A stretch of DNA of 64,000 nt from Polyangiales bacterium (GTDB lineage: Bacteria; Myxococcota_A; Polyangia; Polyangiales; Polyangiaceae): the NCBI GenBank assembly GCA_038231275.1, contig JBBRLQ010000004.1, positions 96,001 through 160,000 of the forward strand, in the 5' to 3' direction. The position numbers and the translations under genes were made by a program. The notes beneath the pieces are model-generated. The model made no database searches. It was not told the DNA's origin and saw nothing but the letters and a program-made list of their open reading frames with translations. Below, in pieces: positions 10,336 through 21,130 of the stretch (position 1 is the stretch's first letter; the number at the start of each line of letters is the position of its first letter).

Positions 10336-10446
10336 GGCCCGCTACATTGCCGGAGCTCGGCGGAACGAGCAACGGCGATGCCGTCATATCAACGAGTTAC
10401 GGCGGGGTTTCTGCCGGCGGGGCCATGCGTTCGGTCTGTAAGCTCG

Positions 10447-11148
10447 ATGCGTGGCGCGCGTTCAGGGATCGTGACCGCAGCGCTTTCGATCTTTATTCTC
10501 CCGGCCGTGGCCGAGCGCGACGATGCGACGAAGCGCGCGCGAGACCAGGAGCGGGCGCGCGAAGAGACGCGCGACGAGGAGCGTGGCCTCGTGTCACGCG
10601 CGCAGGCCGGCGACAAGCAGGCGATGGGCGAGCTCTTCCAGCGGTTCGGCCCCGGGCTCTACCGTAGCGTGCTCCTGCCGCGCCTCGGCTCGGAGGCGGC
10701 GGCGAAGGACGCGCTCGGCGAGACGTACGCCAAGGTCATCACCCGCATCCACCAGTTCACCTGGCAGAACGTCGGGTTCTATCCTTGGCTGCGCACCGTC
10801 GCGCTCCGCGTCGCGCTCGATCAGCTCCGCGCGCGCAAGAGGCTCGTGGTGTGGGAGGAGGATGACGTCGCGCGCGAGCTCGACGCCGCCGCCACGACGA
10901 CGCCGATCGATCAACAGGTCTCCGATCGGCGTGACCGTGACGCCGTCCGCGCGAAGCTGACCCGCGCGCTCGAGCAAATTCATCCGCGCTATGCGCGAGC
11001 GGTCCGACTTCGCGTCCTCGAGGAGCGCCCGCGCGAGGAGGTCGCCCAGATGCTCGAGGTGACGCCTGCGACGTTCGACGTGCTACTTCATCGAGCGATC
11101 GGCGCACTCAAGAAGAAGATGTCCGAAGACGCCGAGGTTGAGTCATGA
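10447..11148 (+). CDS. ECF-type RNA polymerase sigma factor
   Basis: LVSRAQAGDKQAMGELF, AKDALGETY, FYPWLRTVA (region 2); EEVAQMLEVTPATFDVLLHRA (region 4). Start uncertain (ATG 10447 or GTG 10471). Confidence 0.88.
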   Translation: MRGARSGIVTAALSIFILPAVAERDDATKRARDQERAREETRDEERGLVSRAQAGDKQAMGELFQRFGPGLYRSVLLPRLGSEAAAKDALGETYAKVITRIHQFTWQNVGFYPWLRTVALRVALDQLRARKRLVVWEEDDVARELDAAATTTPIDQQVSDRRDRDAVRAKLTRALEQIHPRYARAVRLRVLEERPREEVAQMLEVTPATFDVLLHRAIGALKKKMSEDAEVES

Positions 11149-11681
11149 GCGACAAGCCGAAACCCTTGCCTGAGCCCGCGTGGCTTGACGACCCTGACGC
11201 GCCGCCGTCGGAGGAGGAGAAGATCGCGTCGGCGCGACTGCGCGACGCGCTGGGCGATCCGAAGATCCCGAACGCGGACGCGGAGCTCGCGCGCGCGCTG
11301 TCGCTCGCCGACGAGCCGCGTCCTCTCGCGGAGGAGGAGCACCGCGCGATCGTGGAGCGGAGCCTCGCGACCGCGAAGCCGCGCGGGCAGGTGATCCGGG
11401 TGGCCTTCGGCGTCGCCACGGCCGTTGCCCTCGCGGCGGCCGCCGTCCTCGTACTCGGGAGGCTCGACATGGCAGAGGCGCCGCGTGCGGCCGACATGCG
11501 GGCGGCTGGGCCGGTCCGGATCGCGTCGCTTGCGCCTGTCCGCTCGACGCAGGAGCTCTTCGACGAGCCGTTCGCCAAACCGCTCTCGCGCGGCGCCGCG
11601 AGCGCGCGGATCGATCGGATCGCGATGGCGCGCGCCGGCGATTTGCGCGAAAACCGCTTCGCGATGTGGGGCGTCCGATGA
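11145..11681 (+). CDS. Putative single-pass anti-sigma factor
   Basis: ATGA-coupled to the ECF gene; cytoplasmic N-terminus, one TM (VAFGVATAVALAAAAVLVLG), short C-terminus. Confidence 0.6.
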   Translation: MSDKPKPLPEPAWLDDPDAPPSEEEKIASARLRDALGDPKIPNADAELARALSLADEPRPLAEEEHRAIVERSLATAKPRGQVIRVAFGVATAVALAAAAVLVLGRLDMAEAPRAADMRAAGPVRIASLAPVRSTQELFDEPFAKPLSRGAASARIDRIAMARAGDLRENRFAMWGVR

Positions 11682-12289
11682 ACCTGTTCGACCGGCCCGG
11701 AACCGCCGTGTGGAGCACGATCCTCGCGCTCGCCCTCGCGATCGGCGCGGGGTGCGCGAAGAAGGACGCGGCGCCCGGGAGCGCACCGTCGCCCGCCGCC
11801 GCGGTGCTCGACGCCAGCGGAACCGTCGATCTCGAGGTCATGGCGTTCCTCTCCGAGGCCCGCGCGCTGCACCACGAGGCGAACATCCGCGAAGACGAAG
11901 GAGACCTCCCGAGCGCCATCACCGTGATGCGACGCCTCGTCGGCGCGACCCGGCCCCACGCCGGCGAAAGCGTGCCCGAGGTCCTCGAGGTGCTCGCCGA
12001 CGCGTGGGCCCGCATCGCCGAGCTCGAATTGAAGCGCCGCGATCTGGACGAGGCCGCTAAGGCCGTGAAGGAAGGCCTCGCCCATGCGCCCGACGCCACG
12101 TACTTCCGCGGGCACCTTCTCGAGGTCGAGGGCGTCATCGAAGAGGCGCGCGCCGCCGATTTTTCGGACGCGGGCAAGAAGGACGACGCGCAGCGCGCGC
12201 GGGCGCGGGCGATCGCGCTCTTGCAGGAGGCGGTGAAGGTGCAAGAGCAGGTGATCGGTCGCGCGCTCGGCGATGGGGGGAAACGATGA
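11678..12289 (+). CDS. TPR-like helical lipoprotein
   Basis: Lipobox GAGC; TPR-like helices (LADAWARIAELEL...AAKAVKEGL); ATGA overlap. Confidence 0.7.
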   Translation: MNLFDRPGTAVWSTILALALAIGAGCAKKDAAPGSAPSPAAAVLDASGTVDLEVMAFLSEARALHHEANIREDEGDLPSAITVMRRLVGATRPHAGESVPEVLEVLADAWARIAELELKRRDLDEAAKAVKEGLAHAPDATYFRGHLLEVEGVIEEARAADFSDAGKKDDAQRARARAIALLQEAVKVQEQVIGRALGDGGKR

Positions 12290-12747
12290 AGCTCGATCGA
12301 TGCGTCTGCGCGGTGGGGCTCGTCGCGATCGTGACCGCGGCGTGCGGCGGGGCGGCAAAGAGCGCGTCGGAGCCCGCGAGCCCTGCGACGAGCGCGCCCC
12401 CGGGATACGCGCCGCTACCCGCCCCCGGCGGCGCTGCAGGCACCGGGACGGGGGCCGCGCCTTCGCGCGAGGCAACTCTGTCCGTCGCGCGCGGCGATCT
12501 CGAGTCCGCGCAGCGCGAGCTGGACGTCGCCGCGGGTGACTGCATGGCCGCGTGCCGCGCGCTCGGCGCGATGGATCGTGCGACGGGACACCTCTGCGGG
12601 TTGGTCCAAGAGAGCGACGAGCGAACGCGCTGCGAGGAGGCCAAGAACAGAGTCCGTGGCGCGCGCGACAAGGTGCGCACGACGTGCGGCACGTGCCCCG
12701 GCGGCGTGAGCGTCGATCGCAACGCGCCGGTGCCGACCGAACGATGA
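12286..12747 (+). CDS. Small Cys-containing helical lipoprotein
   Basis: Lipobox TAAC; CMAACRAL...LC...RC...CGTC; ATGA overlap. Confidence 0.7.
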   Translation: MKLDRCVCAVGLVAIVTAACGGAAKSASEPASPATSAPPGYAPLPAPGGAAGTGTGAAPSREATLSVARGDLESAQRELDVAAGDCMAACRALGAMDRATGHLCGLVQESDERTRCEEAKNRVRGARDKVRTTCGTCPGGVSVDRNAPVPTER

Positions 12748-13715
12748 CCGCGGGCGCGATCGATCTCCGCGAGCGCGGCGGGGCGTGGGGCCGAGCGCAG
12801 GCGCTCAAGAACGACGTGATCTACGGCGTCGTGTGCGTCGCGCTCGCGGTCTGTCGTCCGCTGCCCGCGCGCGCGCTGCGCGTCCTCGGGCGAACGATCG
12901 GCCGCGTCGCGCACGTGATTTTCCGGCGCGCGCGGCGGATCGCGCGCGAGAACGTCGCCCTCGCCTTCCCCGCGCTGAATGACGAGGAGCAGGGCGCGCT
13001 CGTTCGACGCTCGTTCCTCGCGCTCGGCGAGCACCTCGGTGCCGCAATCGCCTCGCTCCGGCCTGACGCGACGCTCGTGCCCCTCGATCTCGGGGACGCC
13101 GATCTCGCGGTCATCGAGGAGGCCCTCGCCGGCGGTCGCGGGGTGGTCTTCGCGTCGGCGCACCTCGGCGCGTGGGAGCGTCTCGGCGCCACCCTCGTCG
13201 CCGCCGGAGTGCCGCTCACGACGATCGCCCGCGAGGCCTACGACCCGCGCCTCGACGCGATTTACGATCGCCTCCGCGGAGGACGCGGCGTGCGCGCGAT
13301 CTACCGCGGGCGTCCCGGCGCAGGCGCGCGGATGGTCCGCGTGCTTCGCGACGGCGGCGTGCTCGGCGTCCTCATGGACCTCCGCTCACGCGTCCCGTCG
13401 ATCGACGTTCCGTTTCTCGGTCACGACGCGCCCACCGCGATCGGCCCCGCGCGCTTGGCGCTCCGCACCGGCGCCGCCGTGATCGTGGGCGCGTGCGCTC
13501 CGGGGGGCCGGACCCGGATCGAGCGCGTGTGCACCGCCGACCTCGCGACCCTGCCCGACCCCTCCGCCCGCGCGCGCGCCTTGACCGCCCGCATCAACGA
13601 AGCGCTTTCGCGATTCATCCTCGACATGCCGGAGGGCTGGGTCTGGATGCACGAACGGTACGCGCGAAGCTCACGTCTCGGTCAAGCGGCAAAGGCGAAC
13701 CGCTCGATTTCGTGA
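12744..13715 (+). CDS. Lipid A-type (LpxL/HtrB family) acyltransferase
   Basis: ARENVALAFP, SAHLGAWE (HxxxxE), LGVLMD, VPFLG, PEGWVWMHER; ATGA overlap. Confidence 0.88.
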   Translation: MTAGAIDLRERGGAWGRAQALKNDVIYGVVCVALAVCRPLPARALRVLGRTIGRVAHVIFRRARRIARENVALAFPALNDEEQGALVRRSFLALGEHLGAAIASLRPDATLVPLDLGDADLAVIEEALAGGRGVVFASAHLGAWERLGATLVAAGVPLTTIAREAYDPRLDAIYDRLRGGRGVRAIYRGRPGAGARMVRVLRDGGVLGVLMDLRSRVPSIDVPFLGHDAPTAIGPARLALRTGAAVIVGACAPGGRTRIERVCTADLATLPDPSARARALTARINEALSRFILDMPEGWVWMHERYARSSRLGQAAKANRSIS

Positions 13716-13748
13716 ACGGATCGGCTGGGGACGACATACACTGAACAC

Positions 13749-15308
13749 GTGGCTCAAGGCGCACGGGTCCCCAAAATGGCGGCCAGCGTCGGCGACCTGC
13801 GCTCGCTCCCGCTGGCTCCCGTCGACGGCTTCATCCTCACCCGGGTGAACGGCGTGTCGTCCGTCCGCGAGATCTCGTCGCAGACCGGGGTGTCGGAGGA
13901 CGATGTCGCCGGTTCGCTCATCAAGCTCGCGGGGTTCGGCGTCGTCGAGTTCGTGGGGGAAGGCCGGTTCGCTCCGGCTCCCTTGCCGCCGCCCGAGGAG
14001 GCCATCTACGGCGCGAGCAGGCCCCCACCGCTTTTGACGGAGGTGATGGCGGCGGCCTCCGCGATCTACGACCCCGCGGAGCTCGACGAAGAGTGCGATC
14101 TCGAGCCCGACGAGCGCCGGCGGATCCTCGAGCTCTTTTACCGCCTCGACGACGTGAACTACTACCAGCTGCTCGGCGTCGCCCGGAGCGCGGACCGCAA
14201 GACGATCAAGCGCTCGTACTTCGAGCTCGCTGCGCACTTCCACCCCGACAAGCACTTCCGGAAGAAGCTCGGCGCGTTCAAGCAGAAGATGGAGATCATC
14301 TTCGGCCGGGTGACCGAGGCGCACGACACGCTCACGTCGAAGGAGAAGCGCCCCGAGTACGACCAGTACCTCGAGGTCCAGGAGCAGGCGCGGGGCATCG
14401 AGGCGATGATGGCGAACGCCCAGGCCGACGCCGCGCGCGCGCGCGACGAGCTTCGCCGGGAGATCCCGAGCTCGCCACCTCCCGGGCGTCACACGCCGTC
14501 GATTGCGTACGATCCGAGGCGCGAGGAAGAGGCCGCCCGCGCTGCGCCGGCGCCCCAGGCCTACCAGCCCCCGCCCATGCGCCCGCCGACCGCGTCGCAG
14601 CCGCTCGCGACACCGGCGGCCACCCCCGTCGATCCGCGCCAGGCACGCGAAGCGCTCGCGCGACGACTCCGCGGCGCCACTGCCAAGCCGCCACCGAGGC
14701 CACCGATGTCGAGCGCGCCGTCCGTCGCGACGCAGGACGCGATGGACGCGCTGAAGCGCCGCTACGACGACCGCCGCGCCGACGCCGCCAAGCTCCAGGC
14801 GCAGAAGTACAAGGAGGCCGGCGACGCCGCCCGCGCCAGCAAGGACATGGTGAGCGCCGCCAACGCCTACCGCGTCGCCGTCAGCTTCGACGGAGAGGAT
14901 CCCGAGCTCCAGCGCCTCTTCAAGATGACGCAGGAGGCGGCCGACATGGCCCTCGCCGACTTCTACATGAAGCAGGCGACCTACGAGGAGCGCAACGATC
15001 GGTGGCCAGAGGCCGCGCGCTCGTGGGCGCGCGTCGCCAAGACGAAGGCCGACAACGCCGCGGTCCACGACAAGCTCGCCAACGCCATCCTCAAGTCCAA
15101 CGGCAACCTCCACGAGGCTGCCGCCGCCGCAAAGCACGCCATCGAGTACGGCTCGGCGATCGTCTCCTACCGCCTCACCCTCGTGAACATCTACGTCGCC
15201 GCCGGCCTCATCATCGCCGCAAAACGCGAGCTGGAAGAGGCGGTCCGGATGGAGCCCAACAATCGGGCAGTGGCCGCGCTGGTAAAACAACTCGAAAATA
15301 CAGGGTGA
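13749..15308 (+). CDS. J-domain co-chaperone: N-terminal wHTH-like domain, J domain, Pro-rich linker, TPRs
   Basis: YYQLLGV...IKRSYFELAAHFHPD...EAHDTL with an intact HPD; C-terminal TPR-like helices. Confidence 0.9.
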   Translation: MAQGARVPKMAASVGDLRSLPLAPVDGFILTRVNGVSSVREISSQTGVSEDDVAGSLIKLAGFGVVEFVGEGRFAPAPLPPPEEAIYGASRPPPLLTEVMAAASAIYDPAELDEECDLEPDERRRILELFYRLDDVNYYQLLGVARSADRKTIKRSYFELAAHFHPDKHFRKKLGAFKQKMEIIFGRVTEAHDTLTSKEKRPEYDQYLEVQEQARGIEAMMANAQADAARARDELRREIPSSPPPGRHTPSIAYDPRREEEAARAAPAPQAYQPPPMRPPTASQPLATPAATPVDPRQAREALARRLRGATAKPPPRPPMSSAPSVATQDAMDALKRRYDDRRADAAKLQAQKYKEAGDAARASKDMVSAANAYRVAVSFDGEDPELQRLFKMTQEAADMALADFYMKQATYEERNDRWPEAARSWARVAKTKADNAAVHDKLANAILKSNGNLHEAAAAAKHAIEYGSAIVSYRLTLVNIYVAAGLIIAAKRELEEAVRMEPNNRAVAALVKQLENTG

Positions 15309-15344
15309 GATACCCTGAGACAACGTCGCCAGACACAAGCGATT

Positions 15345-15373
15345 TTTCCAAAACGCCGTCGTCCCTCTAGAAT
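15345..15373 (+). promoter_or_regulatory. Candidate sigma70-type promoter for the dnaK paralogue
   Basis: TTTCCA-N17-TAGAAT in the J/dnaK intergenic region. Confidence 0.4.
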
Positions 15374-15454
15374 CAACGGGTCACGGCCAATCCATTCTTG
15401 GCGTGGACGCTCCGCACGCGCGCGGACGACCACCGAGTACGACGGGAGACGACC

Positions 15455-17278
15455 TTGGAGAAGGTGATCGGAATCGACCTGGGAACGACGAACTCGTGCG
15501 TCGCCATCGTGGAGAACGGGACGCCGAGCGTGATTCCCAATCGGGGGGGATACAAGACGACACCGTCGATGGTGGCTGTCACCGAGGCCGGCAAGCGCCT
15601 CGTGGGGCACATCGCCAAGCGTCAGGCGATCACCAACGCCGAGAACACCGTCTATGCGGCCAAGCGCCTCATCGGACGAAAGTGGAACTCGCCGCAGGTG
15701 AAGAACGCCGTGGCGACGTCGAGCTACCGCATCGTGGAGGGCCCGCACCACGACGTGCGCATCGTGCTCCGGGACAAGGAGTACTCGGTCCCCGAGATCA
15801 GCGCGATGGTGCTCCAGGAGATGAAGATCATCGCCGAGGACTACCTGGGCGAGACGGTCAGCAAGGCGGTCGTCACCGTCCCCGCGTACTTCAACGACAA
15901 CCAGCGCCAGGCGACGAAGGACGCGGGCGAGATCGCCGGGCTCGACGTCATCCGCATCATCAACGAGCCGACGGCGGCGGCGCTCTCCTACGGCTTCGGC
16001 CGCAACATGGAGAAGGTCGTCGCTGTGTACGACTTCGGCGGCGGCACGTTCGACATCTCGATCCTCGAGATCGGCGCGCACGGCGTCTTCAAGGTCATCG
16101 CGACGGCCGGCGACACGTTCCTCGGCGGCGAGGACGTCGACGCGCGCATCATCGACTGGCTCGTGCAGGGCTTCAAAGAGGAGCACAACCTCGATCTGCG
16201 CCAGGACCGAATGGCGCTGCAGCGGCTGAAGGACGCCGCCGAGAAGGCCAAGTGCGAGCTCTCGAGCGTGAAGGAGACGGAGGTGAACCTCCCCTTCATC
16301 ATCTCGAGTGGCCGCAACGAGGCGCTCCACCTCCAGAAGACCCTCACGCGCGTCACGCTCGAGGAGCTGAGCGACGACCTCATCGAGCGCACGGTCGACA
16401 TCTGCCGCCAGACGCTCGAGGACGCCAAGCTCGAGAAGGACGAGATCGAAGAGGTCGTGCTCGTCGGTGGCATGACGCGCATGCCCAAGATCCAGTCCGC
16501 GGTGGCGACGTTCTTCGAGCGCGAGCCGTGCAAGGGCGTGCACCCCGACGAGGTCGTCGCCCTCGGCGCCGCGATCCAGGGCGCCGCGCTCATGGACGAC
16601 AAGCAGGAGATGGTCCTCCTCGACGTCACGCCGCACGCGCTCGGCATCATGACGTTCGGCAGCATCTTCGAGGAGCTCATCCCGCAGAACACAACAGTCC
16701 CCACGCACCGCACGAAGATCTTCACCACCAGCCGTGACAACCAGACGGCCGTAAAGATCCTCGTCATGCAGGGCGAGAGCACGAACGCCGAGGAGAACGA
16801 GCTGCTCGGCGAGTTCATCCTCACCGGCCTAAGGCGCGCGCCCAAGGGCACGGTCGAGATCGAGGTGACCTTCGAGATCAACGCGGACGGCATCGTCAGC
16901 GTGCGCGCGAAGGATCTCGAGACCGGCCTCGAGCAGTCGATCCAGGTCACCGCGACCAGTGGCCTGACGCGCGAAGAGATCAAGGGGATGATCGACAACG
17001 CGAAGGACGACGTCGTCGATCGCCGCTCGAGCGAGGAGTTCGAGGCCGCCAAGCAAGAGGCCGAGAAGATCGTCGGCGAGATCGAGAAGCTCTTCCCGCA
17101 GGTGGAGCAGATCGTCGCGTCGAGCGACTTCGGTCGCGACGCGATCGAGAAGGCGCGCGCCATCGTGGAGCGCGCACGGCAGGCCATCATCAAGAAGGAC
17201 GTGGCGGCCATCAAGGAGCAGATCGACGGTCTCACCCGAACCCATCGGATGTTCAAGGGGGTCGTCGCGAAGACGTAA
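15455..17278 (+). CDS. dnaK: Hsp70/DnaK family chaperone (paralogue with a shortened C-terminus)
   Basis: GIDLGTTNS, TVPAYFND, INEPTAAAL, DFGGGTFDIS, LLDVTP linker, DNQTAV. TTG start preceded by GGGAG. Confidence 0.95.
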   Translation: MEKVIGIDLGTTNSCVAIVENGTPSVIPNRGGYKTTPSMVAVTEAGKRLVGHIAKRQAITNAENTVYAAKRLIGRKWNSPQVKNAVATSSYRIVEGPHHDVRIVLRDKEYSVPEISAMVLQEMKIIAEDYLGETVSKAVVTVPAYFNDNQRQATKDAGEIAGLDVIRIINEPTAAALSYGFGRNMEKVVAVYDFGGGTFDISILEIGAHGVFKVIATAGDTFLGGEDVDARIIDWLVQGFKEEHNLDLRQDRMALQRLKDAAEKAKCELSSVKETEVNLPFIISSGRNEALHLQKTLTRVTLEELSDDLIERTVDICRQTLEDAKLEKDEIEEVVLVGGMTRMPKIQSAVATFFEREPCKGVHPDEVVALGAAIQGAALMDDKQEMVLLDVTPHALGIMTFGSIFEELIPQNTTVPTHRTKIFTTSRDNQTAVKILVMQGESTNAEENELLGEFILTGLRRAPKGTVEIEVTFEINADGIVSVRAKDLETGLEQSIQVTATSGLTREEIKGMIDNAKDDVVDRRSSEEFEAAKQEAEKIVGEIEKLFPQVEQIVASSDFGRDAIEKARAIVERARQAIIKKDVAAIKEQIDGLTRTHRMFKGVVAKT

Positions 17279-17287
17279 CGCAGCGCC

Positions 17288-18376
17288 GTGGGACACGAAC
17301 CGAAAGACGGAGAGCCGAAGTCGTCGGAAGAGGAGCCCGACGAGCGGCCGACCGTCGTCCCGAAGTTCGACCCTGCGGAGCTCGCGCGTGAGACGGCGTC
17401 GAGCTCGCAGAGCCCGTCGAACCCGACCGTCCCGGTGAAGCACGGCGACCTCCCGCGCGATTTGCATGGTGAACGCACGCTGGTGCGGAGCGCGGCGCCC
17501 GACAGCGCGGCGCCGGAGACGACGCAGATGCCCGAGTCGATGCGCTCGAGCCTGCTCTCGATGGCGGACTCGCGTGTCCCGTCGGTGAAGCCGCAGCGGC
17601 TGCCGTCGGTCGGCGGGCTCGCGGTCTCGTCGCTCGACCGCGGGTGGGAGGAGCTGACGCTCGACGAGCCGATCTCGAACCAGCCGAACACCAAGCCATC
17701 GCCGAGCGACGGGCCGTTTCGGCGCGAGACGAGCCGCCTCCGCGCGCCCGCGGGGCAGCAGGTGGTGGCCGAGGACGAAGAGGCAGAGAAGCCGACACGC
17801 GAGCACCCGGTGCTGCCCGACGGAGCCACGCCGTCGGCGCGCGGAATCGCCCGGGAGGACGACGGCGCGCAGCGGCACGAGACGCCCGAGCACACGGTCT
17901 TCGCGCCGGCGCGCGCTGCGGCGGCACTCACGGCGCCGTCCAACCGGCCGAAGCCGATGAGCGATCCGCCGGCGAGCTTGGAGGCGGCGACGGCACTGAC
18001 GCCGGAGGAGACGATCCGCGAAATGCGCGATCGCTTCTCGCTCGGTGACTACACGGGCGCGCTGGTGCTCGCCGACGGCCTGCTCGAGGACGATCCCAAC
18101 AACCCCGAGGTGAAGGAGTGCGCGGAAAACTGCCGGCAGGTGCTGCGGCAGATGTACACCGCGCGCATCGGTCCGCTCGATCGCGTGCCGATGGTGACCG
18201 TCGCGCGCGACCAGCTGCGCTGGCTCTCGATCGACCACCGCGCGGGCTTCGTGCTCTCGCACATCGACGGCATCTCGAGCCTAGAGATGATCCTCGACGT
18301 CAGCGGCATGCCCCTCCTGGACGCCCTCCGCATCCTCTGTGAGCTGGCACAGCAAAGAATCATCTCGTTTCGCTGA
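17288..18376 (+). CDS. Hypothetical protein: long disordered N-terminus, TPR-like hairpin, C-terminal wHTH-like domain
   Basis: Pro/Ser/Glu-rich first ~230 aa; ordered C-terminus GFVLSHIDGISSLEMILDVSGM; 9 bp after dnaK. Confidence 0.8.
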   Translation: MGHEPKDGEPKSSEEEPDERPTVVPKFDPAELARETASSSQSPSNPTVPVKHGDLPRDLHGERTLVRSAAPDSAAPETTQMPESMRSSLLSMADSRVPSVKPQRLPSVGGLAVSSLDRGWEELTLDEPISNQPNTKPSPSDGPFRRETSRLRAPAGQQVVAEDEEAEKPTREHPVLPDGATPSARGIAREDDGAQRHETPEHTVFAPARAAAALTAPSNRPKPMSDPPASLEAATALTPEETIREMRDRFSLGDYTGALVLADGLLEDDPNNPEVKECAENCRQVLRQMYTARIGPLDRVPMVTVARDQLRWLSIDHRAGFVLSHIDGISSLEMILDVSGMPLLDALRILCELAQQRIISFR

Positions 18377-18525
18377 TCCCGCGATGCGGCGCATCGTGAG
18401 GATTCTCTCACCGCGCGGTCCACGCTCGTCGTGGACGGCGCGGTAGCATCGCGCTCGTCCCACGCAAGCTGAATTTCCCTGCGATTCGATTTCGACGCGT
18501 CCGGCTGGAATGCGCGTTGCACCGC

Positions 18526-19590
18526 ATGGATCGGGACGCTAAACCAAGCTTCGCGACGATGGAGGAGAAGCCGGCAGAGACATCGAGGTTGCGTCGAGAC
18601 GTCGAGGGCGCCTTGCGACGCGCGCTCGACCCGTCGGACGTCCTCCCGCTCTTGCATCGCCTCGCGCGGAGCGCGGCGCCGGGGACCGATGAGAGCGTCT
18701 TCGCGCACCGCCACCTCGCAGAGCTGATCGCGGCGCGTCACCCCTGGCGGGCCGCGCTCTACGCGCGTCGCGTGACCGCCGAGCGACCCGACGACGATCG
18801 CGCGTGGGCCGTGCTCGCGCTCTGCCAGACCCTCCTCGCGAACTACCGATACGCGGCGGCGAGCTATCAGCGCGCCCTGTCGTGCGCGCCGAAGAACCCT
18901 TGGTACGCACACAACCTCGGCCACTTGCTCGACGTGGCGCTCGGCCGACCGCAGGAGGCGCTGGGGTGGCTGCGCACCGCGTACGCCGGCGCGCCCAACC
19001 ATGGAGAGATCGCCACCAGCCTCGCGCACGCGCTCGCGCGCGCAGGTCTTCTCGGAGAGGCGAAGAAGGTGCTCGGCCGCGCGATGCGCAAGAGCGCGTC
19101 GAGCGAGCAGCAGGCACTCTGGCGATGGATTGAGCAAGGCGCGCCGGCGGACAAGCGCGCGGCGCGATCCAAGCCCACGATCGTTCCGCTGCCCGGCACC
19201 GAAGACGTAGGGCCGGCGAGCGCTAGCGCTACGCGTCGTCCGAGGCGCGTGAGACCGGCGGCGAAGGACCTCGTCCGTCAGCAGGTGACGGCGCTTCACG
19301 CGGCGCTCGATCGCGGCTTGGAAAATCTCCCGCTCGCGCCGCGTCAACGCGCGCGGGCACGTGCGCTCGCGCGCGACGTCGTGTCGCGCGAAGTGTTCGC
19401 GCGCAGCGGCGCGAGTGAGGACGGTACGCTGCGCACGCAGGCTGTCGCCTCCGCGATCGCCTACGCGATCGTCTGGCTCGACGACGTGCCACTGACGCAA
19501 GCGGAGGTCGCCGCCCCTTTCCGCGTGAGCGTCGCTCGTCTGCGCGGGCGCTTCGCCGAGCTCCGCTCGAAGCTGGGACTCGTCACGTAG
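18526..19590 (+). CDS. TPR protein with a C-terminal TFIIB/cyclin-like HTH domain
   Basis: TPRs (AWAVLALCQTLLANYRYAAASYQRAL; YAHNLGHLL); C-terminus AVASAIAYAIVWLDDVPLTQAEVAAPFRVSVARLRGRFAELRSKL. Confidence 0.8.
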   Translation: MDRDAKPSFATMEEKPAETSRLRRDVEGALRRALDPSDVLPLLHRLARSAAPGTDESVFAHRHLAELIAARHPWRAALYARRVTAERPDDDRAWAVLALCQTLLANYRYAAASYQRALSCAPKNPWYAHNLGHLLDVALGRPQEALGWLRTAYAGAPNHGEIATSLAHALARAGLLGEAKKVLGRAMRKSASSEQQALWRWIEQGAPADKRAARSKPTIVPLPGTEDVGPASASATRRPRRVRPAAKDLVRQQVTALHAALDRGLENLPLAPRQRARARALARDVVSREVFARSGASEDGTLRTQAVASAIAYAIVWLDDVPLTQAEVAAPFRVSVARLRGRFAELRSKLGLVT

Positions 19591-19681
19591 CAGGCTCATC
19601 CCTAGGCGCTCCGAGGAGAAACGCGCCGCTCACGGTAAATTCGGAAATTTGCCTGGCGAGTTGTGCGACAACACGCGGGAC

Positions 19682-21130
19682 ATGCGCGCACGGATTCCGC
19701 TCGTTTTCCTCGCCCTCGCCGCCGGCACCGCCACGGTGATGCTCTGCGCGTCTCCCGCGCTCGCCCAGCCGGCCCCGACGTCGCCCGCGCCGCTCCCCCC
19801 GCCCGGCGCCGAGCCGCCGATCGTCATCCCGCCGCTGCCGGACGTGAACGATCCCATGCTCGCGCCGATGCCACCGGCGACCAAGAACCTCGCAACGCTG
19901 GAAGAGGCGCTCACGTTGGTGAAGGCGCGCTCCACGGATCTACGGGTCGCGTACCTCGAGACCGAGCGCGCGGCCGGGCAGACGCGCGTGGCGCTGGCCG
20001 GGCTCCTCACGACGATCAACGGCAACGTCACGGTGACGAAGAACCTGATCACGCGGACGGCCACGCAGCCCGCGCTCGTCGGCGGTGGCCTCGGCACCGT
20101 CAGCGTGACCACGCCGACATCGGATCCATTCCTGACGGGCGGGGTCACCGTCATCCAGCCGATCGTCAATCTCCGCAACTATCACAACTGGAAGACGGCG
20201 CAGGAGTTCGAGAAGGTCCAGAAGCTTAGCCTCGAGGACGTGCAGCGCAACTTGGCCCTCAACCTCGCGAACGCGCTCGTCGGCGTCGTCACCGCGGAGC
20301 GCGTCGCCGAGCTCAATCGCGCGAGCTTTCGCACGACCCTCGAGCGTCTCGATCTCACGAGGCGGCGCCGTACGCTCGGCGCGGCGACCGGCCTCGACGT
20401 CGCGCGCGCGCAGCTCGACGTCGAGACGGCGCGCGCCAGCATCGTCACGGGCGACGAGTCGCTGCGCCAGTCGCGCGAGGCGCTGGGCTTGGCGGTCGGC
20501 ATGCCGCAACAGGTCGGCGTCTCAAAGCAGCTCGACATCAACGGCCTCGAGCACGCCGCGCTGACGTCGTGCCGCGTCGCGCCGAGCCTCGAGGCGCGCG
20601 CCGACATCGCCGCCGCACGCCAGCGCGTCATCGTCGCCGCCCGCAACCACGACAACGTGAAGCTCCAGTTCTTGCCGACGCTCAACGCCGTAAGCGGCCT
20701 CAACACCACGACGCTCGACACCGGGAGCGCCTACCCCACCACCTGGAACATCCAGGCCGTCCTCGCCGTGCCGCTGTGGGAAGGCGGCGCGCGGTATGGC
20801 CTCCTCCGAGATACCGAGGCGCAGACGCGCGAGGCGGAGATGAGCCTCGAGTCGCTCCGCAGGAACGCGACCGTGCAGCTCGAACAAGCCAAGCGTGGCG
20901 TCTCCGTGGCCGATGCGTCGCTCAAGGTCGCCACCGACCACCGCGCCCTCGCGGCCGAGACCGACAGGCTCGTGCGCGCCGGTTATGCGGAGGGTCAGTT
21001 CACCAGCCTCGACTTGGTGACCGCCGCCGCGACGCTCCGCAACGCCGACATCGATCTCGCGCTGAAGGAGTTCGGGCTGGTGCAGGCGCGCATCTTGGCG
21101 ATCCTCTCGCTCGCGACTTGTCCCTTCTGA
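19682..21130 (+). CDS. TolC-family outer membrane efflux protein
   Basis: Signal peptide, TLEEALTL, ATGLDVARAQ, VPLWEGG, YAEGQFTSLDLVTA. Confidence 0.88.
   Translation: MRARIPLVFLALAAGTATVMLCASPALAQPAPTSPAPLPPPGAEPPIVIPPLPDVNDPMLAPMPPATKNLATLEEALTLVKARSTDLRVAYLETERAAGQTRVALAGLLTTINGNVTVTKNLITRTATQPALVGGGLGTVSVTTPTSDPFLTGGVTVIQPIVNLRNYHNWKTAQEFEKVQKLSLEDVQRNLALNLANALVGVVTAERVAELNRASFRTTLERLDLTRRRRTLGAATGLDVARAQLDVETARASIVTGDESLRQSREALGLAVGMPQQVGVSKQLDINGLEHAALTSCRVAPSLEARADIAAARQRVIVAARNHDNVKLQFLPTLNAVSGLNTTTLDTGSAYPTTWNIQAVLAVPLWEGGARYGLLRDTEAQTREAEMSLESLRRNATVQLEQAKRGVSVADASLKVATDHRALAAETDRLVRAGYAEGQFTSLDLVTAAATLRNADIDLALKEFGLVQARILAILSLATCPF

Follow-up and report, generated by a model that had tools for sequence, protein, structure and literature searches.

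A stretch of 64,000 nucleotides from a Polyangiales bacterium (contig JBBRLQ010000004.1 of assembly GCA_038231275.1, positions 96,001 to 160,000; hereafter the window) carries a chaperone operon in which a gene for a J-domain protein (J) is followed by dnaK and then by a gene for a protein without family assignment, which we call X. The N-terminus of J and the C-terminus of X are true paralogues, both being copies of one unnamed winged helix-turn-helix (wHTH) domain that has no Pfam family of its own. The arrangement recurs in other genomes across Myxococcota, which points to a phylum-wide three-gene layout and a lineage-specific Hsp70 system. On a fairly even balance of evidence, we think it probable that the wHTH modules are acidic docking domains for a common protein partner rather than DNA-binding domains.

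Spare Hsp70s are, to our knowledge, numerous in bacteria whose genomes are large, and their clients and partner logic are mostly uncharacterised. The host genome (9.28 Mb in 164 contigs, 69% G+C), whose named relatives are Labilithrix, Polyangiales and 'Myxococcales' metagenome-assembled genomes, has about eleven Hsp70-like open reading frames (ORFs) and seventeen J-domain ORFs. The operon described here represents a tightly conserved, phylum-wide Hsp70 triad in which both accessory proteins share one undescribed domain; a search of open-access main texts found no description of the domain or the operon. If the module is a specificity element, it would offer a direct handle on target choice by a specialised Hsp70, and X is a candidate third co-chaperone for an Hsp70 operon that lacks GrpE.

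A winged helix-turn-helix module shared by J and X

The initial annotation, made from the letters of the window, had called a J-protein, dnaK and a following gene, which the ORFs and their family matches bear out, and had proposed that the same wHTH-like domain of about 54 amino acids lies on both sides of dnaK, with 16 of 54 identities in a gap-free alignment. Translations of 13791-13952 and 18209-18370 reproduce exactly the two peptides that it quoted; the count is correct and the homology is confirmed. BLASTP aligns the J segment with the X segment at 16 of 52 identities with 0 gaps (E 3e-7, single comparison), and their Smith-Waterman score of 60, against 20.3 +/- 3.8 in shuffles, was reached by 0 of 5000. 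Profile-profile comparison, a check that the annotation had itself named, gave an hhalign probability of 97.7% (E 2.2e-12 over 67 columns) between 14 J N-termini (alignment A2; 13 relatives and the window) and 21 X C-termini (A3; 20 relatives and the window). Because this profile alignment runs about nine residues further upstream (nine in J, ten in X), to a common R-V-P motif ('GARVPKM...' in J, 'LDRVPMV...' in X), we moved the limits of the module upstream; hence the core first proposed stands, while its exact limits do not, the module being slightly longer (approximate limits in Table 1). The GTG start of J is favoured, since the conserved R-V-P motif is 5' of the ATG at 13776.

J consists of the N-terminal module, a linker, a J domain with its HPD motif, a proline-rich linker and a C-terminal tetratricopeptide repeat (TPR)-like region. 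It is a J-domain protein by its match to Pfam DnaJ (54.5 bits, cut-off 27.8), and is not of class A, since against the class A DnaJ equivalog TIGR02349 it scores 55.7 bits (cut-off 377.2), with the J domain alone matching; according to Pfam, the wHTH module and the TPR-like region stand in place of the zinc-finger and C-terminal domains of class A DnaJ. The match of the J C-terminus to TPR_19 is sub-threshold (E 0.0034), and the paralogous J protein in the host genome (protein 78) clears the TPR_19 cut-off. The paralogous wHTH-J-TPR protein of 593 amino acids (L008:6001-7779, minus strand; G000:C3:331259-333037) has no Hsp70 nearby; its gene is directly preceded, like that of the window J, by an acyltransferase gene (PF01553).

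X comprises a variable, low-complexity N-terminal region of about 230 amino acids and a C-terminal region of about 130 that is as conserved as the J domain. Neither Pfam (best E 0.13) nor NCBIfam has a family that it matches. Homologues number 1048 at E<=0.001 among 1543 candidates, and the best 120 listed are all named 'hypothetical protein', with 0 having a precomputed Pfam domain. Atlas leads from one homologue (P0215) were Myxococcota TPR or hypothetical clusters at 0.98 and Acidobacteriota PatA_N-plus-TPR clusters below 0.9. In the AF2 model of residues 232-362 (predicted local distance difference test score, pLDDT, 92.5; predicted template modelling score 0.79), three TPR-type helices are followed by an R-V-P-M-V strand, a short helix, three helices and a final I-S-F strand. 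The R-V-P-M-V strand is predicted to pair with the C-terminal I-S-F strand around the helices, so that the modelled module is built as strand, helices, strand and stops at the protein's final residues. The three preceding helices (model positions 8-20, 24-37 and 42-63) would form a TPR-like unit. In the VIA structure comparison this helical unit reaches Z 9.7 to the TPR proteins 4ynw_A and 8ffv_D (root-mean-square deviation, rmsd, 1.4-1.5 over 60-61 residues) and Z 9.6 to another, 1p5q_A (rmsd 1.2 over 61 residues), all short of the value of about 13 below which the tool advises caution with helical repeats; against TPR_19, residues 239-294 score 13 bits, the cut-off being 25.

As to the module itself, its label as wHTH-like in the initial annotation agrees with the AF2 models and with the structure matches. 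The J module is modelled as a small helical domain (pLDDT 80.4), for which the Foldseek rows shown are all of winged-helix type (Lrp/AsnC, ArsR, MarR, LexA, Z-alpha and the CheF C-domain), with E 0.14-0.67 and probabilities mostly of 0.72-0.99 (two acetyltransferase rows, 0.25-0.28). The VIA rows shown are likewise all of winged-helix type (TFE-alpha, RPC62, Fur, ArsR and MarR; Z 6.9-8.3), and for the module part of the X model the best is GATOR1 chain 8fw5_B (Z 9.6, rmsd 2.1, 69 residues), the SEA-complex chain 8adl_S being at Z 8.8. At the superfamily level, the module is therefore a wHTH on the evidence of its predicted models. Curated families give no closer assignment. Neither the J nor the X module reaches the Pfam gathering cut-off of MarR_2, TrmB, HTH_IclR, HTH_47, the HTH_AsnC type or HTH_9, the best Pfam wHTH scores of the two being 13.3 bits for HTH_9 (cut-off 23.4) and 12.8 bits for TrmB (cut-off 25.6). 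Over the 14 copies of the module in the host genome (see below), sub-threshold Pfam matches are mostly to winged-helix or HTH families (TrmB in 5/14, MarR_2 in 4/14, PqqD, IclR and HTH_47 in 2/14 each), and no Pfam family is matched by more than 5 of the 14. A profile of these copies gave as its top PDB row a designed repeat protein, through repeated short matches, besides weak matches to a pair of related methyltransferase chains, of which one carries the label DsyB (E 2.4e-4), to PqqD (5sxy, E 4.5e-4; 5vrd, E 9.1e-3) and to Lrp/AsnC regulators (about 1e-2).

A fold of this kind raises the idea that the modules bind DNA or the nucleoid, targeting the Hsp70 system to the chromosome or regulating its own operon, an idea consistent with the sub-threshold matches to the MarR, TrmB, Lrp/AsnC, IclR, Fur and ArsR families and with the reported action of Myxococcus xanthus Hsp70 systems on chromosome organisation (PMC10313047). 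We regard it as very unlikely because the module is acidic: whereas a DNA-binding wHTH would be net positive, taking charge as a proxy, the net charge is on average -2.75 and is zero or below in 94% of 177 module copies (J -3, X -1), and it is negative in 12 of the 14 genomic copies. No set of copies consistently reaches the curated cut-off of a DNA-binding family, and the modelled module, ending at the last residues of the protein, has no full two-strand wing after helix 3.

Small winged helices also occur outside DNA binding: those of DsyB (7wdq), CalO1 (3lst), the GATOR1 chain (8fw5_B) and PqqD or the RiPP (ribosomally synthesised and post-translationally modified peptide) recognition element (RRE) serve protein or peptide contacts. 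These share the small wHTH fold with the module and match it weakly (sequence E 2.4e-4 to 0.5; structure Z 9.6 and 7.6), but no family cut-off is reached, and the module family is distinguished by its single strand either side of the helices and by its terminal position. A function modelled on PqqD and the RRE, in which an extended peptide would be bound by strand addition to the wHTH and passed on to Hsp70, has very little of our credence. The two PqqD structures matched by the profile, the sub-threshold PqqD matches in Pfam, and one representative protein at 23.8 bits against the PF05402 cut-off of 23.4 (in which no single stretch passes) are in its favour, as is the position of the conserved R-V-P strand, predicted to pack where a ligand strand could lie. 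The model, however, has two strands where PqqD has a sheet of three; the structure searches list neither a PqqD nor an RRE structure, though absence from a list excludes none; and no RiPP genes occur among the ORFs scanned at 10336-21127.

Conservation of the operon and its Hsp70

Two of 14 copies lying one gene apart among 7000-8000 genes would be expected by chance in about 5% of cases, so that adjacency in one genome is weak evidence. The initial annotation had conceded that, were the domain common in the proteome, adjacency could be a matter of chance; this is excluded because the arrangement recurs at 36 of 36 loci in other genomes. X-like proteins are found in 26 of 31 related genomes, and at E<=1e-10 the profile of the X C-terminus has hits in 95 of 201 Myxococcota genomes. 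For the order-level comparison we took the best locus from 20 relatives out of the 25 that gave a match (the five omitted include two with X at a contig edge and one with a partial match only), and a further 16 loci were hand-picked to spread over other families of Myxococcota. The dnaK gene lies directly upstream of X at all 20 order-level and all 16 hand-picked loci, and a J gene precedes dnaK at 19/20 (one contig ends inside dnaK) and 15/16 respectively. X carries the module at 36/36 loci, and so do 27 of the 28 J proteins with an N-terminus present (13/13 and 14/15), six J genes being cut by contig ends or broken and hence unread for the N-terminal module. At one locus (L029; G018:C11:33000-42000), in a genome 59% complete, dnaK is split into at least five open-frame pieces and the acyltransferase gene into two, which points to frameshifts or assembly errors.

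Compared with the canonical dnaK-dnaJ-grpE operon of the Escherichia coli type, the likeness is an Hsp70 encoded beside a J partner whose J domain contains HPD. The differences are that grpE is absent from the J-dnaK-X operon, the third gene being the family-less X, and that DnaK itself fails the DnaK equivalog model TIGR02350 and is one of four DnaK-like copies. Although the operon DnaK clears NF001413 (776.4 bits, cut-off 648), it scores 750.6-750.8 bits against TIGR02350, below the cut-off of 822.55, while three other genomic copies clear that cut-off at 849-955 bits; as the fourth-best match, it is thus a specialised, non-canonical paralogue. Its start is uncertain, the Hsp70 domain beginning at residue 23 of the ORF. 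The host genome also contains three long Hsp70 ORFs with open frames of 839-983 amino acids (G000 C7:271678-274626, C3:2430-5195 and C24:93450-95966), of which those on C7 and C3 each adjoin a J-domain ORF, and which we take to recall the PilZ-DnaK chaperones of M. xanthus.

Specialised Hsp70 systems are known from gliding bacteria, among them the Hsp70/J pair DnaK1-DnaJ3 of Nostoc (PMC9239167) and SglK-GrpS and StkA-StkB-StkC of M. xanthus, where SglK pairs with a GrpE homologue (PMC4319316, PMC8265645, PMC11019930). They resemble the present operon in being extra, non-heat-shock Hsp70 paralogues with dedicated partners and regulatory roles in large genomes, and differ in that no wHTH module or X-like protein is described in the passages covered, which include some from a 2026 bioRxiv Tn-seq preprint. 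The M. xanthus stk locus was considered as a counterpart and rejected, StkB being an SCP2 protein and StkC PhaE-like. A search with the X of a large-genome relative gave 31 matches, none of which linked the operon to M. xanthus locus tags. MXAN_3015/3016 and MXAN_2745/2747, tags of J-proteins and Hsp70s, are candidates in M. xanthus by tag proximity only.

The C-terminal tail of the operon DnaK (17236-17278, ...RTHRMFKGVVAKT) conforms to a consensus ...RT(H/Q/L)(R/N)MF(K/R)GVV... across loci L025-L060, its MF[KR]GV motif being present at 19/20 order-level and 6/16 other loci. Co-chaperones of the TPR type, such as FKBP52, PP5, Sgt2, Hop and CHIP, clamp the C-terminal tails of Hsp70 and Hsp90. 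The X unit of three helices can be superposed on these co-chaperones at Z 8.3-9.7, and the operon DnaK has a conserved tail; in contrast to those proteins, X has only about 1.5 repeats and does not pass Pfam TPR (E 0.13), and the DnaK tail reads RMFKGVV, not EEVD. By analogy, a TPR clamp of X on the DnaK tail is conceivable, given that the tail is conserved and both partners carry TPR-like units.

Such a clamp would fit a tentative possibility, that J and X share one docking site, which they would occupy successively or as competitors, the site being the C-terminal R-M-F-K-G-V-V tail or lid of DnaK, or else a client shared by the two. X may then be the missing third co-chaperone, either a release or exchange factor or an adaptor, roles suggested by the lack of grpE in the operon. 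The invariable position of X directly after dnaK argues for this arrangement, as do the J-domain-like conservation of the X C-terminus, the recurrence of the DnaK tail motif, and the TPR-like units on both partners, that of X resembling TPR co-chaperones at Z 9.6-9.7. Against it, the scores of those TPR matches fall in the range where the tool advises caution for helical repeats, and four DnaK variants without lid or tail retain both partners. These variants, of about 540 amino acids, come from one family and occupy 4 of the 16 phylum-level loci (L061, L062, L065 and L066; G078, G154, G109 and G067); they lack the helical lid, as is shown by matches that stop at query residue 534. J and X are still present at all four, and the window DnaK retains its lid and conserved tail.

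Distribution and possible partners of the module

A hidden Markov model of the two segments, taken through four iterations on the six-frame ORFs of the whole host genome, completed the proteome scan that the initial annotation had proposed and found the module in 14 ORFs. Four copies are N-terminal: those of J, of the paralogous wHTH-J-TPR protein and of two proteins with another common C-terminal region. The latter (L006:6001-7149 and L010:6001-7281, both minus strand) have the N-terminal module, an acidic linker and a common C-terminal region of about 230 amino acids without Pfam match, and represent a second N-terminal architecture beside the J-proteins. The remaining ten copies are at the extreme C-terminus, mostly of small proteins built like X; one ends a response regulator with DUF4388/PatA_N (L011:6004-8229, plus strand), and another ends a 1027-amino-acid open frame in which an HD-like motif is visible by eye and for whose called gene Pfam gives no match.

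The module profile matches 7037 proteins at E<=0.001 and 1773 at E<=1e-10 in a library of 1.84 billion representatives, a number large enough for a family of its own. Among the best 150 representatives, 128 of the 177 copies end within eight residues of the C-terminus and 19 begin within the first 40 residues; DnaJ is the sole recurrent known partner domain (11/150; DUF4388 occurs in 2 and PilZ in 1), most proteins having no Pfam domain. Multi-module architectures were read from 32 proteins picked for several copies, N-terminal copies or short length, and some of these carry five or six modules, alternating with DUF4388 or placed before a J domain. P0007 has five DUF4388 alternating with five modules, and P0003 has DUF4388, six modules, DnaJ and TPR, which suggests a recurrent unit of DUF4388 plus module. 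PF14332 (DUF4388/PatA_N) itself has 0 Pfam matches in J or X; its co-occurrence with the module is seen in L011, P0003 and P0007. The family is wider than the operon, since relatives without a match to X still carry the module. Thus the module is not private to J and X but general, being present in some 12 other proteins per genome, none near an Hsp70 gene, and in those X-less relatives.

The mechanism we favour for the operon, protein docking, would run as follows. The J domain, with its HPD intact, would switch on the operon DnaK. Regions outside the J domain of J-domain proteins select clients or places, and for this reason the wHTH of J would act as its targeting module; with a wHTH of its own, X would share that binding specificity. 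Both proteins would then be brought to one partner, which could be the other protein, DnaK, or a common client or site. The conserved placement of the module on both partners across the phylum argues for a functional link to this Hsp70, and its acidic charge favours docking over DNA binding; the DsyB N-terminal domain (E 2.4e-4), PqqD (E 4.5e-4) and the GATOR1 chain are non-DNA-binding wHTH precedents among the matches. The initial annotation had likewise taken the domain for a docking or address module by which J would pair or compete with its neighbour. Conserved placement and acidic charge agree with the docking part, whereas pairing or competition of J and X through the domain is not borne out, co-evolution of the two modules being unremarkable.

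Direct pairing, in which the N-terminal wHTH of J would bind the C-terminal wHTH of X and X would be delivered to DnaK as adaptor or client or would block J, is rather unlikely in our estimate. It would explain the presence of the module on both proteins in 27/28 testable operons, and the sequence matches include wHTH domains that dimerise, for instance the one at the methyltransferase N-terminus; the edge strand predicted at each module end could also pair in trans. In a mirror-tree analysis of 26 operons, however, the partial correlation (r) between J module and X module is 0.31, below the 0.42-0.47 of within-protein pairs, and the X module is better conserved than the J module (mean identity 41% against 32%), where a mutual interface predicts otherwise. 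Correlations of the other segment pairs were 0.18-0.52, the highest being that of J-TPR with X-TPR (0.52). Co-folding of J(1-78) with X(232-362), with alignments as input, gave an ipSAE (interaction prediction score from aligned errors) of 0.00 in two runs without controls, which is no evidence for binding or against it.

Docking to a common partner is a reasonable but unproven interpretation, and the particular partner is one that we infer. Several observations weigh against it. The mirror-tree value for the two modules is unexceptional. No Hsp70 gene lies within about 6 kb at the 12 other module loci of the host genome, and the five relatives without X match hold one to three copies, so that the module need not be tied to Hsp70. 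A basic net charge (+6 and +1) is found in two of the 14 genomic copies, and among solved structures those closest to the isolated module are mostly DNA-binding regulators. The structural matches are themselves modest: Foldseek against the PDB gave 0 matches at E<=0.001 for the J or X model, and the VIA values (Z 6.9-9.7) are near or below the tool's caution lines, and we therefore claim the fold class alone.

The same module ends other signalling proteins and starts other J-proteins, which would fit a shared 'address' read by J-proteins. In its fullest form this would be a homotypic tag, the N-terminal wHTH of a J-protein recognising the same wHTH at the C-terminus of signalling proteins and bringing in a dedicated Hsp70 by which signalling complexes would be remodelled or reset; we consider it distinctly unlikely. 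The tagged proteins would be response regulators with PatA_N, HD-type proteins, kinases and small TPR proteins, and the operon-encoded X would be a built-in competitor or adaptor tuning recruitment. If true, it would amount to a bacterial, domain-coded system of client selection for Hsp70.

Gene neighbourhood

The features of the operon are listed in Table 1 together with the two genes that flank it. The upstream acyltransferase and the downstream TPR protein are context genes whose membership in the system is only putative: an acyltransferase homologue lies upstream of J in 6/20 order-level loci, and a homologue of the TPR protein downstream of X in 2/20.

Table 1. Features of the J-dnaK-X operon and its flanking genes, in window positions.
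Feature	Position	Strand	Basis
Acyltransferase (lipid A-type), context gene	12684..13715	+	Pfam Lip_A_acyltrans 2.8e-31; 33 nt 5' of J gene
J-domain protein (J), 519 aa	13749..15308	+	ORF translation; Pfam DnaJ 1.2e-14
Winged-helix module of J, residues 6-68, R-V-P strand to V-V-E-F strand (limits approximate)	13764..13952	+	Sequence, profile, AF2 model and structure matches
J domain, residues 137-205	14157..14363	+	Pfam DnaJ; HPD within 'HFHPDKH'
TPR-like region, J C-terminus	14931..15305	+	Sub-threshold TPR_19, TPR_14 and TPR_8 matches
dnaK (Hsp70 paralogue)	15398..17278	+	Pfam HSP70 1e-210
Protein X, 362 aa	17288..18376	+	ORF; begins 9 nt past dnaK stop
Predicted three-helix TPR-like unit of X, residues 239-294	18002..18169	+	AF2 model, VIA
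Winged-helix module of X, residues 299-362 (limits approximate)	18182..18373	+	Sequence, profile and AF2 model
Downstream TPR protein, context gene	18559..19590	+	Pfam TPR_17 1.7e-8, TPR_19 2.8e-7

A simple promoter and terminator scan of 12400-19800, which is weak evidence, gave no terminator-like site on the plus strand and a sole sigma-70-like promoter match, at 15345-15373 in the gap between J and dnaK, with 9 of 12 hexamer positions. Further upstream, at 10336-12747, are an extracytoplasmic function (ECF)-type sigma factor (Sigma70_r2, r4_2), a family-less ORF of 178 amino acids, a weak-TPR protein and a cysteine-containing ORF of 153 amino acids; a homologue of the sigma factor recurs upstream of the operon in 4/20 order-level loci.

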